From an uncultured Candidatus Rokubacteria bacterium (GTDB taxonomy: Bacteria; Methylomirabilota; Methylomirabilia; Rokubacteriales; CSP1-6), in NCBI GenBank assembly GCA_963758635.1, contig CAVWWD010000003.1, positions 576,001 to 640,000 of the forward strand: a DNA stretch of 64,000 nt, in the 5' to 3' direction. Both the position numbers and the translations under genes were made by a program. The notes under the pieces are model-generated. The model saw only the letters and a list, made by a program, of their open reading frames with translations, did not search any database and was not told where the DNA came from. This document shows positions 2,893 to 64,000 of the stretch, piece by piece; the first letter of the stretch is position 1, and the number at the start of each line of letters is the position of its first letter.

Positions 2893-2996
2893 GCGGGGTT
2901 CTCCTTGGTGGTGGGCGCAGTATACCCGATCAGTCCGCGGGCCGGATCGGCGAGGACGGAGGCGGCACGGCTTGCGGCGGGGGGGGCCGTTGGCGC

Positions 2997-3416
2997 TCAG
3001 CCCGGGAGCCGCAGCTCGCGGCCGGCCTGGATCTGAGCCGCGTCGAGGCTCACGAATCGCGCCAGCGGCTCCCGCTCGTGGAACCACAGCGCGGTCCTGA
3101 GATGGGCCAGGTCCAGGGAGCGAGGCGTGGAGACGATCGGCATCGCCTGGGATCGGCATAGATCGAGCGTCAAGTCCCGCAGCGTGAACTGCGCCAGATC
3201 GGCGGCCAGCCGGTCCAGCGCCTCCTGCAGATGCTCGGGCGAGAGCCGACCTGCGCGCGAGAGATGCACGAGGGTGCGCTCGGCTTCCAGAGCGAGCAGT
3301 GAACTGGACAGGAGGCGCCCTCCGGCCAGTTCCTTGACGAGGCGTTCCCATCCGGCCTCGCCGAGCAACACGCACAGGTACGCTGACGTGTCGACGTAGT
3401 AGCGCCGGGCGGGCAC
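2997..3416 (-). CDS. vapC: PIN-domain toxin (VapC family)
   Basis: YVDTSA N-terminal motif, RSLDLAHL and SLD..Q C-terminal motifs; directly downstream of antitoxin. Confidence 0.85.
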   Translation of the reverse strand: MPARRYYVDTSAYLCVLLGEAGWERLVKELAGGRLLSSSLLALEAERTLVHLSRAGRLSPEHLQEALDRLAADLAQFTLRDLTLDLCRSQAMPIVSTPRSLDLAHLRTALWFHEREPLARFVSLDAAQIQAGRELRLPG

Positions 3417-20878: not shown

Positions 20879-21345
20879 GGAAGGAGGCGGATGGGATCGC
20901 CCGCGCGGATCCCGCCCGGGCGCAGCACGCGCGCGTACACTCGGCTGTCGCCGGGGTTCTGCTTCTGGGAGACGCGCGCGAAGTCGCCGTTCTTGAACGC
21001 GGCCTTGATCTTGAAGCACGGCGACGTGTAGCGAGTGACCTCGACCAGCACCTCGTCACCCAGGGCGAGACGGGCGCCGGGCACGACCGCGCTCCAGTCG
21101 ATGCCGGCCACGGTGATGTTCTCGCCGATGGCGCCGGGGACGATCGCGTGGCCCTCGGCCTGGAGCGCGTGGATGCGCTCGAGGGGGAAGAGGCAGACGG
21201 CCCGCTCCGGGCCGCCGTGGTATCGGAGGTCGCGCTGCTGATCGCCTTGCACGCCGAGCGTGGTCACCCGGGCCTCGGGGACCGGCAGCTTCGGTACGCC
21301 GCCACCGGACACGTTGATCTGCGCGATCTTCCCGATCGCACTCAC
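20875..21345 (-). CDS. MOSC domain protein
   Basis: SGGGVPK, HGGPERAVC, GENIT, SPC..I, ARVL..G.I..GD. Confidence 0.9.
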   Translation of the reverse strand: MSAIGKIAQINVSGGGVPKLPVPEARVTTLGVQGDQQRDLRYHGGPERAVCLFPLERIHALQAEGHAIVPGAIGENITVAGIDWSAVVPGARLALGDEVLVEVTRYTSPCFKIKAAFKNGDFARVSQKQNPGDSRVYARVLRPGGIRAGDPIRLLP

Positions 21346-21440
21346 CGCCGCGCCCGTCTGCCGATCTGCCTCGGCGCTCACAGCCGCACCCGCCGGCCGA
21401 TGTTTCTCACGCTCACAACCGCACCCGCCGGCCCATGTTC
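21340..21440 (-). repeat. Three imperfect ~35-bp tandem copies of the ocd stop / MOSC start junction
   Basis: AACATGGGCCGGCGGGTGCGGTTGTGAGCG, AACATCGGCCGGCGGGTGCGGCTGTGAGCG, CAGATCGGCAGACGGGCGCGGCGGTGAGTG. Confidence 0.7.
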
Positions 21441-22387
21441 CTCGCCATGGCCCGATCATACGCGAGCCGCGCGGTGGCGGCGTCCTCGGCGGCCCAGCCC
21501 ACGGACTTGAAGAGCGTGATCTCGCGATCGGAGCGGCGGCCCGGCTTCCGGCCACTGACCACCTCGGCGAGCTCGGCGACCACGTGCCGGCGCGGGAGCG
21601 CGCCCGCGCGGATGGGGATGAGCACGTCGCCCGCCTCCGTCCACGCGCCCTCGTACGTGTCCACCACCACGCGGGCGCGCCGCACGCCCTCCGTATCCAC
21701 CTCGCGCGCGTGGGGCAGGAAATTGCCGACCGCGTCCACGTGAGCGCCCGGGCGGAGATCGCGGCCCCTGAACACGGGCGTGGTGGCCGTGGTGGCGCAC
21801 ACCACCACGTCGGCGTCGCGGACGGCGGCGCTCCGATCAGTCGTGACCGTGACGGGCACGCGGAGCGCGCGACGCATGCGCGCGGCGAAGTCGCGGGCGC
21901 GCGCCGGGCTCCGGCCCACGACGGTGACGCGGTCGATCGGCCGCACCGCCTGCAGGCAGCGGAGCTGGAACTCCGCTTGCACCCCGGCGCCGAAGCAGGC
22001 GACGGAACGCGCGGCGGCGCGCGCGAGATGACGGGAGGCCAGCGCGGAGGCGGCGCCGGTGCGGATGGCGGTGAGGAAGCCGGCTTCCATGAGGGCCAGC
22101 GGCACGCCGGTGGTGGCATCCGTGAGCAGGTACGAGCCATGGATCGTGGGGAGGCGCCGCGCCTTGTTGCCGGGCACCCAGGTCACGAGCTTGGTGCCGA
22201 GCGTGCGACGTCGGGAAAGGCTCGCCACCATGGAGAGGAAGATGCCGCCGCCCGTCATCGGGAGCATGGCCCGGGGCAGCGCGCGCACCTGGCCCGCGGC
22301 CGCCTCCTGGAAGGCGGTCTCCACCGCGCCGATCACGTCGGCGGGTGACAGGAGGCGCTGGAGGTCCCGGCGCGTCAGGATCAGCAC
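21413..22387 (-). CDS. Ornithine cyclodeaminase/mu-crystallin family protein
   Basis: LTAIRTGA, GAGVQA, LFKSVG.A.ED. Confidence 0.9.
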   Translation of the reverse strand: MLILTRRDLQRLLSPADVIGAVETAFQEAAAGQVRALPRAMLPMTGGGIFLSMVASLSRRRTLGTKLVTWVPGNKARRLPTIHGSYLLTDATTGVPLALMEAGFLTAIRTGAASALASRHLARAAARSVACFGAGVQAEFQLRCLQAVRPIDRVTVVGRSPARARDFAARMRRALRVPVTVTTDRSAAVRDADVVVCATTATTPVFRGRDLRPGAHVDAVGNFLPHAREVDTEGVRRARVVVDTYEGAWTEAGDVLIPIRAGALPRRHVVAELAEVVSGRKPGRRSDREITLFKSVGWAAEDAATARLAYDRAMARNMGRRVRL

Positions 22388-23927: not shown

Positions 23928-25210
23928 CAGGACGCGGGCGGGCCGCCCGCGGGCCCGTCGGTCAGCTCGCGATGGCGGCGCCGGGCGGGGAGGATGCCGG
24001 CGGGACGGAAGATCATCATCACCACGAGGATCAGGCCGAACACCATGCGCTCGTACTTGGCCGGCTCGAGCTGCGTGGGGAGGTTGGCGAGGCTCCAGCC
24101 GAAGATGGTCACGCCGGCGTTCCTGAGCTCGTTGAGCCAGAGCGAGAGGCCCTTCAGGACCTGGAGGTTCAGCACCGTCACCACGGTGGCGCCGAGCACG
24201 GCGCCGGGGATGGATCCCATGCCGCCCAGGATGACCATGGCGAGGACGCCGATCGACTCCATGAACGTGAACGACTCCGGGTTGATGAACACCTGCTTGG
24301 CCGAGAAGAGCACGCCCACCGCGCCCGCGAACGACGCCCCGCACGCGAAGGCCAGGAGCTTGGTGCGCACGAGGGGCACGCCCATCGCCTGGGCGGCGGT
24401 CTGATCCTCGCGGATCGCCTCCCAGGCGCGGCCGATGTGCGAGTCCTCCAGGCGCCGGTTCACGAGGATCGTGACCCCGACGATCACGAGCACGAGGAAG
24501 TAGAGGTAGAGCGGGATAGATCACGTTGGGGTTCGGGTCGATGCCGAGCGCCTGCAGCAACGGCGCGAAGAAGATGGGCGGGCGGGAGATGGGCGTGATG
24601 CCCTTCGGGCCCGTTGGTGAAGTTGATCGGCTTGTCGAGGTTGTTGGCGAGGACGCGGATCACCTCGCCGAAGCCCAGCGTGACGATCGCCAGGTAGTCG
24701 CCGTGGAGGCGGAGCACGGGCAGGCCCAGCAGGATGCCCGCGCCCGCGGCCACGCCGATGCCGACCAGCAGGAACACGAAGAACCACGCGGGCGACAGCG
24801 GGAAGAATGTGCCCCCGGCGATCTGGTTCGCCTGGGGCGAGCCGAACACCGCCCACGAGTAGGCGCCGACGGCGAAGAAGGCGACGTAGCCCAGGTCGAG
24901 GAGCCCGGCGAGGCCCACCACGATGTTGAGGCCCAGCGCGAGGGCCACGAAGATGCCCACCTGGATGGCGATCTCCAGGTAGTAGCCGTTGATCGAGCCC
25001 AGGACCGGCATGAGCACGCCCAGGGTGGCCACGGCCATGAGCGTCTTGAGCCGGCCCGGGATGTTCGCGAAGTAGAGGAGGAGGATCGAGGCCTGGAACA
25101 GCATGAAGACCACGATCGAGCGCGGGAAGTGGGCCACGCCGTAGGAGGTCATGGCGATGGCGGCGACGGTGATCGCCAGGGCGGAGAGCGGACGACCGAG
25201 GAGGTTTCAT
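23927..25210 (-). CDS. livM: Branched-chain amino acid ABC transporter permease (about 3 frameshifts)
   Basis: [42 protein letters not shown] across successive frames. Confidence 0.88.
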
Positions 25211-25232
25211 GTGCGTCTGCGGTCAGGCGTTC

Positions 25233-25401
25233 GCGGTCGTTTCCAAGGCATTTCCATATACGCTCGGCTCGCCTTCGGCTCACCTCGCAAAGCAGGTGCC
25301 CCAGTCATGAGCGCTGGCGGACGACCGGTTGCGGTCGTTTCCAAGGCATTTCCATATGCGCTCGGCTCGCCTTCGGCTCACCTCGCAAAGCAGGTGCCCC
25401 A
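25233..25401 (-). repeat. Two 71-bp direct repeats (25233-25303, 25331-25401) carrying the family A tandem-G.A hairpin, between livH and livM
   Basis: TGGGGCACCTGCTTTGCGAGGTGAGCCGAAGGCGAGCCGAGCG(C/T)ATATGGAAATGCCTTGGAAACGACCGC twice, 1 mismatch, 98-bp period. Confidence 0.92.
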
Positions 25402-32286: not shown

Positions 32287-32537
32287 TGGGGGGGAGCGGC
32301 CGCGCTCCCCCCCCACCGCCCCCCACGGCCACGTGCGAGCCTTCGCGGCGCCATTCGGCGCGCGGGGTGCTTCCGTTTTCGCGTGTGCGCCCGGTCGAAC
32401 GTGCGCGCTCCCCCCCACCGCCCCCCACGGACCACGTGCGCGCCTTCGCGGCGCCATTCGGCGCGCGGGGTGGTTCCGTTTTCGCGTGTGCGCCCGGTCG
32501 AACGTGCGCTCCCGCCCCCTCGCCCCCCACGGCCACG
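32287..32537. repeat. About 2.3 tandem copies of a ~103-bp GC-rich palindromic unit
   Basis: GCGCTCCCCC..ACCGCCCCCCACGG..CACGTGCG.GCCTTCGCGGCGCCATTCGGCGCGCGGGGTG.TTCCGTTTTCGCGTGTGCGCCCGGTCGAACGT at ~32302 and ~32405, partial third copy. Confidence 0.85.
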
Positions 32538-32557
32538 GGCGGGCGTCGGCGGGGCGG

Positions 32558-45933: not shown

Positions 45934-45985
45934 CGTCTGTGTCGTGCGTCTGTGTCGTGCGTCTGTGTCGTGCGTCTGTGTCGTG
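45934..45985. repeat. 13-bp perfect tandem repeat x4 immediately upstream of fimT
   Basis: (CGTCTGTGTCGTG)4. Confidence 0.95.
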
Positions 45986-49920: not shown

Positions 49921-51120
49921 CTACTTGATCAGCGTGACGAGGCGGAAGATCGGCAGGTACATGGCCACCACCATGCCGCCGATGACGATGCCCAGGAACA
50001 CGATCATCAGCGGCTCGAGCAGCGCGGTGAGCGCGGTGACCGCCGTGTCGACCTCGTCGTCGTAGAAGTCCGCGATCTTGGACAGCATGGCGTCGAGGGC
50101 GCCCGTCTGCTCGCCGACGTTGATCATCTGGGTGACCATCGGCGGGAACACGGACGAGGCGCGCAGGGGGTCGGCGAGGGTGCGGCCGGCGGTGACGGCG
50201 GCTCGGCACTGGAGGACGGCCTTCTCCACGACCTTGTTGCCCGCCGTCTTGGCGGTGATGCGAAGGCCTTCGAGGATGGGGACGCCGGAGGAGACCAGCG
50301 TGCCGAGCGTGCGCGTGAAGCGGGCCACCGCCACCTTGCGGATCAACGTGCCGAAGACGGGTGTCTTGAGCAGCATGGCGTCGATCGTGGACTTGCCCTG
50401 CTCGGTCTTGTAGTACTGCCGCACGGCGAACACGAGCCCGATCACGCCGAGGATGATGTAGATGAACTTGGTCTGGGCGAAGTCCGAGAGCCAGAGCACG
50501 ATCTGCGTGGGCAGCGGCAGGTCGGCGCCCAGGTTCTTGAACATCTTCGCGAACTCGGGGATGACGAAGGTCAGCATGAACAGCACGACGAGGAACGCCA
50601 CGCCGATGATCGTGGCCGGGTACACCATGGCCGCCTTGATCTTCCGCTTGAGGGCGGCCGCCTTCTCGATGTAGACGGACAGGCGCTGGAGGACCACGTC
50701 GAGGATACCGCCGGCCTCGCCCACCGCCACGAGGTTCACGAAGAGGTCGGTGAAGACCTTGGGATGCCGCTTGAGGGCGTCGGCAAGGGTCGAGCCGGAC
50801 TCGACGGACCGGGCCACGTTCGCGGTCACGCCCCGCAGGGTCTTCGAGTCGCTCTGCTCGGCGAGGATGTTCAGGCACTGCACCAGGGGCAGGCCGGCGT
50901 CGATCATGGTCGAGAACTGGCGCGTGAAGATCGCCATCTCGCGGTCGGTGACGCCGCCCCCGAACTTGGCGATGGTGCGTCCGCCCGCCTTCTCGGAGAT
51001 CTTGGTGACGAGGATCGACCGGTTGCGCAACTCACCGACGGCGGACGTCCGGTCAGTCGCCTCGATCTCTCCCGTGGTCACCCCTCGCGCTCCGCGACCC
51101 TGGTAGGCGAACACCGGCAT
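49921..51120 (-). CDS. pilC: Type IV pilus platform protein
   Basis: FTRQFSTMIDAGLP, GEAGG, AMVYP, GEQTG, AMYLPIF. Confidence 0.95.
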   Translation of the reverse strand: MPVFAYQGRGARGVTTGEIEATDRTSAVGELRNRSILVTKISEKAGGRTIAKFGGGVTDREMAIFTRQFSTMIDAGLPLVQCLNILAEQSDSKTLRGVTANVARSVESGSTLADALKRHPKVFTDLFVNLVAVGEAGGILDVVLQRLSVYIEKAAALKRKIKAAMVYPATIIGVAFLVVLFMLTFVIPEFAKMFKNLGADLPLPTQIVLWLSDFAQTKFIYIILGVIGLVFAVRQYYKTEQGKSTIDAMLLKTPVFGTLIRKVAVARFTRTLGTLVSSGVPILEGLRITAKTAGNKVVEKAVLQCRAAVTAGRTLADPLRASSVFPPMVTQMINVGEQTGALDAMLSKIADFYDDEVDTAVTALTALLEPLMIVFLGIVIGGMVVAMYLPIFRLVTLIK

Positions 51121-51166
51121 GAGTTCTCCCTCCTGGTGACGTCCCGGCTATCGTGAGGCGGCTCGT

Positions 51167-51243
51167 TGAGCCCCGCGCATCAGACTAATGCCGGGCGGTG
51201 GGACTGTAGAGGCCCGTGGCGGTTAGCCCATGCTGCGAGGTCA
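51167..51243 (-). ncRNA. Family B structured element (candidate RNA motif or miniature mobile element) at the pilT stop
   Basis: 71/78 aligned positions identical to 63312-63389; terminal stem TGA.CC.CGCA / TGCGCGGGG.TCA. Confidence 0.5.
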
Positions 51244-52382
51244 TGACCGCCGGCCGAACGGCGATCCCCCGCCGCTCCCGGCGGCAGACGCGGGCGCCCC
51301 CGCGCCCCCGCCGGCCCGGTGGACTTCAGGAGCTGGTCGAGCTCGTCCGGGAGCGTGCTCCGGTTGACCGCCTCGTCGCGCGCGATCTTCCGCTTCTGCA
51401 CCGCGTCGCACAGCGACTGGTTCATCGTCTGCATGCCGAACTTCTGCCCGGCCTGCATGACCGAGTAGATCTGGTGGATCTTTTCCTCGCGGATCAGGTT
51501 CCGGATGGCCGGCGTGGTGACCATGATCTCGAGCGCCATCACGCGGCCCCGCCCGTCCGCGGTGGGGACCAGCTGCTGGGAGAGCACGCCTTCGAGCACG
51601 AGGGAGAGCTGGGCCCGCACCTGGCCCTGCTGGCTCGTCGGGAACACGTCGATGATGCGGTTCATCGTCTGCGCGCAGGAGTTCGTGTGGAGCGTGCCGA
51701 GGGTGAGATGGCCGGTCTCGGCGATCGTCAGGGCGGCGCTGATCGTCTCCAGGTCGCGCATCTCGCCGACGAGGACCACGTCCGGGTCCTGGCGGAGGAT
51801 GGACTTCAGCGCGTTCTTGAACGAGTGCGTGTCCGAGAACACCTCGCGCTGGTTCACCAGGCTCTTCTTGTGCTGGTGCACGAACTCGATGGGGTCCTCG
51901 ATGGTCATGATGTGGTCGCTGCGCTCGGAGTTGATCTTGTCGATCATCGCGGCGAGCGTGGTCGACTTGCCCGATCCCGTCGGCCCGGTCACGAGGACGA
52001 GGCCCTTGGGGCGGTCGGCCAGCTGCTCGACGATGGGCGGCAGGTTGAGGTCGGAGAACGACCGGATCTTGAACGGGATCACGCGGATGGCCGCGGCCAC
52101 CGCGCCCCGCTGACGGTACACGTTGCAGCGGAAGCGGGCGAGGCCCTGGATCCCGAAGGACAGGTCGAGCTCGTTCTCCTCCTCGAACTTCTGCTTCTGC
52201 CCTTCGTTCAGCACGCTGTAGGCGAGGCGCTGGGTGTCCTGCGGCGTCAGCTGCTCGAACTGGTTGAGCCCGACGAGGCGTCCGTTGAGCCGGATCTGCG
52301 GGTAGGTGCCGGTCGTGACGTGCAGATCCGAGGCTCCGCGCTCGATCATGATCGTCAGCAGGTCGTGCATCGTGGCCGCCAT
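51241..52382 (-). CDS. pilT: Type IV pilus retraction ATPase (probable frameshift in G-run near 51300)
   Basis: GPTGSGKST, TIEDPIE, LRQDPD, TGHL..GTLHT, AIRNLIRE, GMQT. Confidence 0.96.
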
Positions 52383-60881: not shown

Positions 60882-63311
<2,430 letters not shown>

Positions 63312-63389
63312 TGACCCGCGCAGAATGCGGTAACCGCCACGGGCCTCTACAGTCCCACCGCTCGGCATTGGTCTGATGCGCGGGGCTCA
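63312..63389 (+). ncRNA. Family B structured element directly after the lon stop codon
   Basis: TGACCCGCGCAGAATGCGGTAACCGCCACGGGCCTCTACAGTCCCACCGCTCGGCATTGGTCTGATGCGCGGGGCTCA; second copy at 51167-51243. Confidence 0.5.
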
Positions 63390-63422
63390 CTAGCGTAACG
63401 TCGTGCCGACACAGGCTGAAAT

Positions 63423-63459
63423 CGGGAGTCCGATTCCGGGTTGCCGGGTCGGACTCCCG
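63423..63459. terminator. Inverted repeat between lon and the transglycosylase gene
   Basis: CGGGAGTCCGA ... TCGGACTCCCG perfect 11-bp arms. Confidence 0.5.
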
Positions 63460-63468
63460 TCCGCTATC

Positions 63469-64000
63469 GTGGAAGCAGTCGTGCTGAGACGCCTCATCCT
63501 CGGCTCTTCCATGCTGCTCCTCCTCGGGCCCGCCCCTGGCGGCGCCGCACCTTCCTATCAGCTGACCGACACCGAAGGTGTGACCCACTTCACCAACGCG
63601 CCGACCGACCCGCGCTACCGCCGCATCGCCGGCATGTCGGGGACGGCCGTGGGGTGGCTGCGCATCCCCGAGGCCGCGCGCCTCCGCTACGCCGACGAGA
63701 TCGCAGGCGGCCGCTTCGCGCCATGGCGTGGATCAGGCGCTCGTCCAGTCGGTGATCAGGGTGGAGTCCGCGTTCAACCCGTGGGCCGTCTCCCCCAAGG
63801 GCGCGCAGGGCTTGATGCAGCTGATGCCGCAGACGGCCTCGTCGCTCGGGGTGCGGGACGCGTTCAACCCTCGCCAGAACATCGACGGGGGCGTTCGACA
63901 CCTTCGCTACCTGATCGACCGGTTCCCGGGCAACGTGTCGCTGGCTCTGGCCGCTTACAATGCCGGCGAGAACGCGGTCAACGCGTACCGCGGTGTCCCG
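63469..64000 (+). CDS. Lytic transglycosylase (SLT) with DUF4124-like N-terminus, partial; frameshift near 63703
   Basis: Manual translation: signal peptide, TDTEGVTHFTN.P, VIRVESAFNP.AVS.KGAQGLMQLMP, ALAAYNAG. Confidence 0.88.
   Translation, partial: MEAVVLRRLILGSSMLLLLGPAPGGAAPSYQLTDTEGVTHFTNAPTDPRYRRIAGMSGTAVGWLRIPEAARLRYADEIAGGRFAPWRGSGARPVGDQGGVRVQPVGRLPQGRAGLDAADAADGLVARGAGRVQPSPEHRRGRSTPSLPDRPVPGQRVAGSGRLQCRRERGQRVPRCP

Follow-up and report, generated by a model that had tools for sequence, protein, structure and literature searches.

The repeat that lies next to both pilT and lon in the window (the whole 64,000-nt stretch of DNA analysed here) is, at a probability that we place at about 0.9 from sequence comparison, a copy of an old, gene-less MITE of the IS630 type that resembles RUP and ERIC and owes its placement at stop codons to its likely target, CTAG. 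The 80-bp repeat is short, non-coding and dispersed, carries terminal inverted repeats and is found at sites that are empty in orthologous loci, the features by which bacterial MITEs are recognised. The original prediction had offered two readings, a new cis-acting RNA or a stop-codon-targeting miniature mobile element. The mobile element stood, with 174 copies, empty sites, TA flanks and IS630 ends; the targeting did not, and is only apparent, the share of copies at stop codons matching that of free CTAG sites.

The two copies in the window and their family

The copy between pilT and pilC (51165..51244, minus strand, right boundary uncertain by one base) and the copy behind lon (63311..63390, plus strand) form the longest inverted repeat in the window. 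Over the segments first compared (51167-51243, minus, and 63312-63389, plus), they show seven differences, one of them a gap, in 78 columns, which reproduces the 71/78 match reported at the outset. The invariant block common to both, present as predicted and given there as 30 nt, was counted as 31 nt on the pairwise alignment. Likewise, the proposed 78-nt element is a real repeat, with boundaries one base wider on each side, i.e. 80 bp between TA dinucleotides. Both copies lie in the sense orientation, as had been stated, which holds for these two and not for the family.

The lon protease gene (60882..63311, plus) ends in TAA at 63309-63311 and the 78-mer begins at 63312, directly behind that stop as originally read. 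The left TA (63309..63310, plus; preceded by C 63308) supplies the first two bases of the stop codon and the first base of the element, A, completes it; a second TA (63391..63392, plus) with G 63393 next closes the right side, and the two would represent the target duplication. The terminal repeats, about 25 bp long, occupy 63311..63335 (left, plus) and 63366..63390 (right, minus). Near-identical contigs from three studies (X1, X2 and X5) begin inside the lon copy and continue downstream, so the copy is not an assembly artefact; these contigs show two gaps in 63340-63999. Contigs of four soil/bog runs, compared at 80% likeness, gave 450 joints; none of the 15 listed skipped either copy, a result that carries no weight. 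Downstream of the lon element, a single-copy inverted repeat at 63415-63460 lies where lon orthologues are often hairpin-like; it may be the native lon terminator, one that a simple terminator scan did not call.

At the other copy, the left flank TC (51245..51246, minus) is read as the decayed TA of an ancestral pilT TAG stop, in the context G-TA and not C-TA, and the right flank GA (51163..51164, minus), followed by G, as a decayed TA-G, a variant common in the family. The element's own TGA (51243-51241, minus) would now end pilT, the type IV pilus ATPase gene (51241..52382, minus); the pilC-like inner-membrane gene (49921..51120, minus) lies downstream of the element. The assembled pilT frame, which carries one frameshift near its 3′ end, enters the repeat and stops at 51180. 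The alternative frame ends GSPFGRRS-TGA, and since the PilT proteins of relatives have tails of the SPFGRR type, this correction, made in the original prediction, is reasonable and the frameshift would be an assembly error. Frameshifts at 51260-51320, about 52475 and about 63700, near the pilT and pilB ends and in a transglycosylase-like gene, are probably long-read assembly errors.

A BLAST search with the repeat against the source genome gave E 1.3e-24. A profile built from 154 BLAST hits and run on this genome (6.17 Mb, 71% GC, an 87%-complete assembly) returned 174 nhmmer hits at E<=0.01, 92 on the plus and 82 on the minus strand, 161 of them near full length. The flanks were analysed in 134 copies with anchorable ends, a choice that favours intact ends. 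Their consensus reads C-TA, a body of 80 bp with RTGA at its start and TCAC at its end, and TA-G; pairs of copies are on average 88% identical, and two pairs are fully so. The terminal inverted repeats, about 25 bp, are imperfect, and left and right ends alike resemble one IS630 end motif. C precedes the left dinucleotide in 110/134 copies and G follows the right one in 108/134, and on either side the most frequent dinucleotide is TA. The two dinucleotides agree in 44/134 copies, against 32 expected by permutation (p=0.002), and just 32/134 copies keep TA on both flanks; TA retention at the flanks does not follow the divergence of the interior. Only two of the 134 copies lie within called genes.

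Adjacent copies are arranged head to tail in 11/11 pairs, most with one dinucleotide in common, which fits re-insertion at the CTAG left by a right end, or local duplication. Four head-to-tail copies at C5:331665-331990, all spaced by GA instead of TA, suggest local amplification after the flanks had decayed. Older, diverged elements of the 80-bp type with IS630-type ends and a different interior were also seen at C4:341984-342070 (2984-3070 of locus L021), C3:440956 and C3:787884, outside the profile hits. The window further holds an unrelated tandem repeat of about 97 bp (25207-25303 and 25305-25401; 113 genome BLAST hits at E<=1e-6) and local tandem repeats of about 103, 13 and 35 bp at 32294-32555, 45934-45985 and 21339-21443, respectively.

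IS630 elements with matching ends

IS630 matches above the cut-off were present in 51 of 159 genomes of the same bacterial family. From these, 48 loci were examined, namely the first 28 and a further 20 chosen by hand from the matches listed, mainly of split-frame types. Within the first 28, C-TA followed by GT occurs at both ends in 18. A subclade whose ends start with TAATGA comprises eight loci, all in the second set (L290, L292, L294, L296, L299, L300, L301 and L304), and the best local matches to the ends of the element among the 48 loci all come from it. The left end of the family consensus matches at up to 17/19 bases; over 27 bases, left ends agree with the left end of the element at 17-21 positions and right ends with its right end, which is more diverged, at 14-19. 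Seven complete members are 1,121-1,134 bp long and are flanked by C-TA and TA-G. Two frames, divided at a run of A, encode their transposase, and both halves match the IS630 model NF033545. In L296 (430-1472, genome G044) and its relatives, the two frames overlap and the split falls at a run of eight A, which we take to be a probable site of programmed -1 frameshifting. The match of the ends points to the transposase of this subclade as the one that would have moved the element. Beyond about 35 bp, no match of the MITE interior to the subclade elements was detectable. An attC-like site, IS3-type TG...CA ends and a 4-bp duplication had also been considered and were dropped, since the ends match IS630 and tandem copies share two bases.

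The same end motif was found in 21/251 genomes of the class, against 0/251 for the reversed control, and it bounds sister MITEs of 80 bp (G089), 176 bp (G072) and 256-273 bp (G078, G097, G110, G142 and G156). The 80-mer of G089 agrees with the source-genome consensus at 51/86 positions without gaps, and in its interior at 20/46 (p=0.012), so the 80-bp type may be old. The sister MITEs inspected (L316, L323, L332, L333, L334 and L315 in G156, G097, G110, G142 and G078; L317 in G072; L321 in G049) include elements of 176-273 bp with long internal arms and a common C-rich central motif, which the 80-bp element does not have. Parts of the sister-MITE interior also match the source genome.

The source genome carries IS630, IS110, IS4/5-type and integrase-core genes, none with matching ends, and an IS630 of the TAATGA subclade was not found in the 87%-complete assembly. 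The best match to the subclade lies at C7:248k; this IS630 carries a frameshift, its separate pieces are 30-63% identical and its ends are different. At the two best IS630 loci of this genome the ends do not match the element. The missing transposase bears on present mobility and not on origin; the family is probably immobile in the source genome.

Empty sites, stop codons and a proposed mechanism

Orthologous loci were compared for both host genes, for pilT the best 29 loci from 120 family genomes (28 after one, where pilC had been picked instead, was dropped) and for lon the best 24 from 50 genomes. The element is absent from all 52, in relatives that belong to other genera and that count as non-independent observations. 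The stop codon of the PilT orthologues is at the same position and reads TAG in 17/28, TAA in 4/28 and TGA in 7/28. Among nine lon orthologues ending in Asn like that of the source genome, six have C-TAG, two C-TAA and one C-TGA. The orthologue L231 has the identical last two codons, CAC-AAC, and then a plain, single TAG where the source genome has TA, the element and TA-G.

Comparison with the relative G060, in which no copy was found in 2.0 of 5.5 Mb, extends this to other genes. For 18/18 syntenic gene pairs with a copy in the source genome, the gap is longer than that of G060, in six cases by 80-86 bp and in one two-copy gap by 160 bp; the 547 control pairs have a median difference of +3 bp with a wide tail (10th to 90th percentile, -44 to +160 bp). 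In three cases, the G060 orthologue ends in TAG and the source gene reads TTG, TCG or TCA there, followed by the TGA of the element, as at pilT. Genome-wide, the share of orthologues of element-bearing genes that end in TAG or TAA is not significantly raised (11/23 versus 344/907, p=0.39), and the search for empty sites among source-genome paralogues gave no clean case among the matches listed.

Outside the source genome, exact patterns had no match in GTDB genome contigs and viral contigs and one match in metagenome contigs, L011, in searches that possibly left out records near the source genome; L011 carries the same insertion beside a flanking gene that is 82% identical. A sequence-only model gave one strong match in 149 family genomes, a single diverged copy in G003, with the caveat that short-read assemblies can lose repeats; two weak matches (E 3e-4 and 4e-4) were not counted. 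A right-end pattern allowing two mismatches had single matches in 6/250 other genomes, none of them an element on inspection. The unpublished genomes G009, G023 and G102 enter the search tallies and support nothing else said here.

The position of the copies relative to genes was assessed with our own prediction of 5,706 genes, which covers about 77% of the genome. A stop codon lies at one end in 82/133 copies, 52 of them at the left end in sense, 34 at the right end in antisense and four at both. The flank dinucleotide together with the first base of the element forms the stop in 54 cases, and in 21/133 copies the gene ends one codon later, at the TGA that belongs to the element. Free CTAG words in gaps of <=300 bp fall on stop codons in 286/513 cases (56%), which does not differ from the element (p=0.19). 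On a cruder baseline that counts every non-genic CTAG, 62% of the copies and 34% of the CTAG words stand at stops (p=2e-10). This excess fell to p=0.19 in the short gaps because about a fifth of the genome received no gene calls. Looser target words are at stops less often (C/G-TA-A/G 39%, C/T-TA-A/G 43%), and with these the excess would remain. That most surviving copies sit at gene ends would follow from the rarity of CTAG at 71% GC, with over half of the CTAG words in short gaps being TAG stops.

The gene contexts comprise 64 sense and 36 antisense insertions between co-oriented genes (p=0.007), 27 between convergent and six between divergent genes. Transcripts may tolerate one orientation better than the other, which could account for the sense bias. 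Divergent gaps are under-used, with six copies against 19 expected (overall p=0.002), a shortfall that we ascribe to counter-selection of copies in promoter regions.

According to one account (PMC2170065), transposases of the IS630 family integrate by cut and paste at TA, which is thereby duplicated. A transposase supplied in trans would have bound both ends of the present element, excised it and inserted it at TA. Either end reads TA-purine-TGA inward, so that insertion at such a site would rebuild a stop, TAA or TAG, and add a spare in-frame TGA; upon later decay of the TA, this TGA would take over and the protein would gain one residue, as proposed for pilT. A 1991 paper, going by its title, is said to report that IS630 prefers TA within CTAG.

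As for decay, the interior TA words erode as well, at three of four sites (kept in 40%, 51% and 72% of copies, and in 95% within CTAC), and of all TA words in gene gaps, CTAG, CTAA and TTAG are the most strongly depleted (O/E 0.24-0.27). If TA words are being lost in general, this would suffice to explain the decay of flanks and interior, albeit as an unproven cause. Copies are scarce in lower-GC regions, which hold 2% of copies and 12% of windows; together with the insertion common to L011, this suggests an old burst.

Alternative readings and comparison with known systems

Of the two readings in the original prediction, one was a structured RNA confined to pilT/pilC and lon and acting in cis as a riboswitch, ribozyme or leader; in its favour, the ends can pair. 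The prediction was right that no known RNA class could be recognised: Rfam gave no hit in the window, and the only hit of five copies was mir-7939, whose 15-18 bits fall short of the cut-off of 75, so no Rfam family explains the repeat. The pilT copy does fold better in sense than its shuffles (z=-1.98), but it is the sole exception among single copies; the lon copy has z=-0.02 and a different fold, and the antisense values are +0.80 and +0.17, respectively. The fold of the 134-copy alignment is weak as well, at about -3 kcal/mol with four pairs kept. In the proposed helices, two-sided changes number 6, 1, 0 and 0 against 4.2, 0.5, 0.6 and 0.6 in shuffles, i.e. there is no covariation, the share of paired cells equals that of shuffles, and the first pair of the 3′ half of the AATGC helix is broken in the majority variant. 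With 174 copies beside unrelated genes in both orientations, absence from the 52 orthologous loci, and a terminal pairing that is the transposon's inverted repeat, neither the helices nor the RNA itself can be upheld, and we regard a structured RNA as highly improbable. The chance that the repeat is a small peptide gene, read as a 21-codon sense frame from its first base, is practically negligible: the frame is open in 53/134 copies and the G003 copy likewise starts MTLAE, but it is broken in 81/134, single-base indels are frequent (26 copies are shorter by one base and 25 longer), and the G003 copy retains the DNA block with the frame shifted.

It had also been proposed that many copies in random orientation would favour a REP-type repeat over an RNA. 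Both orientations are indeed common, and what they belong to is a DDE-type MITE and not a REP. REPs are, according to PMC2817692, short palindromes that start with GTAG and alternate in orientation within BIMEs. High copy number, intergenic position, some tandem pairs and a GTAG word on the minus strand of the core recall such repeats; here, however, GTAG is internal, all 11 neighbouring pairs run head to tail, and the source genome has no Y1 transposase (PF01797). Movement by another IS family with CTAG-like targets is opposed by the finding that none of this genome's IS110, IS4/IS5-type or integrase-core loci coincides with an end-like word outside the copies, and the IS630 match of the ends argues against both ideas, which we deem very unlikely. 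A MITE by origin, many of whose copies are kept as mRNA stability or processing signals in 3′ UTRs or between cistrons, has a small but appreciable chance. It would account for the sense bias, for the many interior positions conserved at 95-100% when the flanks are not, and for the insertion common to L011, and ERIC in Yersinia is reported (PMC2229807, PMC10969869) to alter mRNA stability or processing. Against it, no proposed helix covaries, the element is absent at orthologous sites in relatives, the lon copy has no sigma-70 promoter-like or terminator-like site in a simple scan, and the fast positions are mostly TA, in the interior too, so that the contrast may stem from a loss of TA words throughout the genome, with no need for selection on the interior. 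A bolder proposal, and a doubtful one, is that the TAATGA ends are adapted to the stop codon as a safe harbour and that the 80-bp derivative, domesticated behind dozens of genes across the genome, acts on mRNA stability or processing according to its orientation, TA erosion locking the copies in place.

Under the preferred reading, an old IS630-type MITE, the significance is modest. A false structured-RNA candidate is removed, and repeats that seem to start at stop codons in GC-rich genomes become the expected outcome of CTAG targeting. The family is apparently undescribed and, with its sister MITEs of 80-273 bp in other genera, would be tied to one IS630 subclade. It also offers a small route of protein change, as genes ending at the element's TGA have one residue added. 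No description of the 80-bp family was found in the literature searched, which covered few subscription papers. It is likely a new family of a known kind, an IS630 MITE resembling RUP and ERIC, and ordinary selfish DNA.

The comparison with RUP, ERIC/MITEPlu5 and Correia draws on the papers cited and on PMC2759123. RUP of Streptococcus pneumoniae is about 100 bp long, has over 100 intergenic copies and TA flanks, and its terminal repeats resemble those of an IS630-family element, IS630-Spn1, which is thought to move it in trans (PMC2229807, PMC3049150). Unlike RUP, the present family is 80 bp long, GC-rich, unrelated in sequence and heavily decayed in its flanks; it overlaps stop codons strongly because CTAG is rare in the source genome, and its matching IS630 is known just from related genomes and not from the source assembly. 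Terminal similarity is also the basis on which RUP and ERIC-like MITEs have been assigned to IS630 elements (PMC2229807, PMC6267812). ERIC/MITEEc1 and MITEPlu5 of Photorhabdus are, like the present element, TA-flanked, with termini matching one subset of the IS630-type elements of their group, and their copies are similar, rarely identical and often at gene 3′ ends; in contrast, their hairpins are strong and MITEPlu5 varies from strain to strain, whereas our element folds weakly (PMC6267812, PMC2229807). Correia (NEMIS) of Neisseria is another TA-flanked MITE with terminal repeats of about 25 bp (PMC2229807) and is counted among the IS630-derived MITEs (PMC2817692); the present element is shorter, with imperfect terminal repeats and no established IHF site or promoter. 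Also comparable are the IS630 elements of the TAATGA subclade in the same bacterial family, which are autonomous, 1.13 kb long and equipped with a split transposase, and which share with the 80-bp element the first 19-27 bases of the ends and the C-TA/TA-G flanks.
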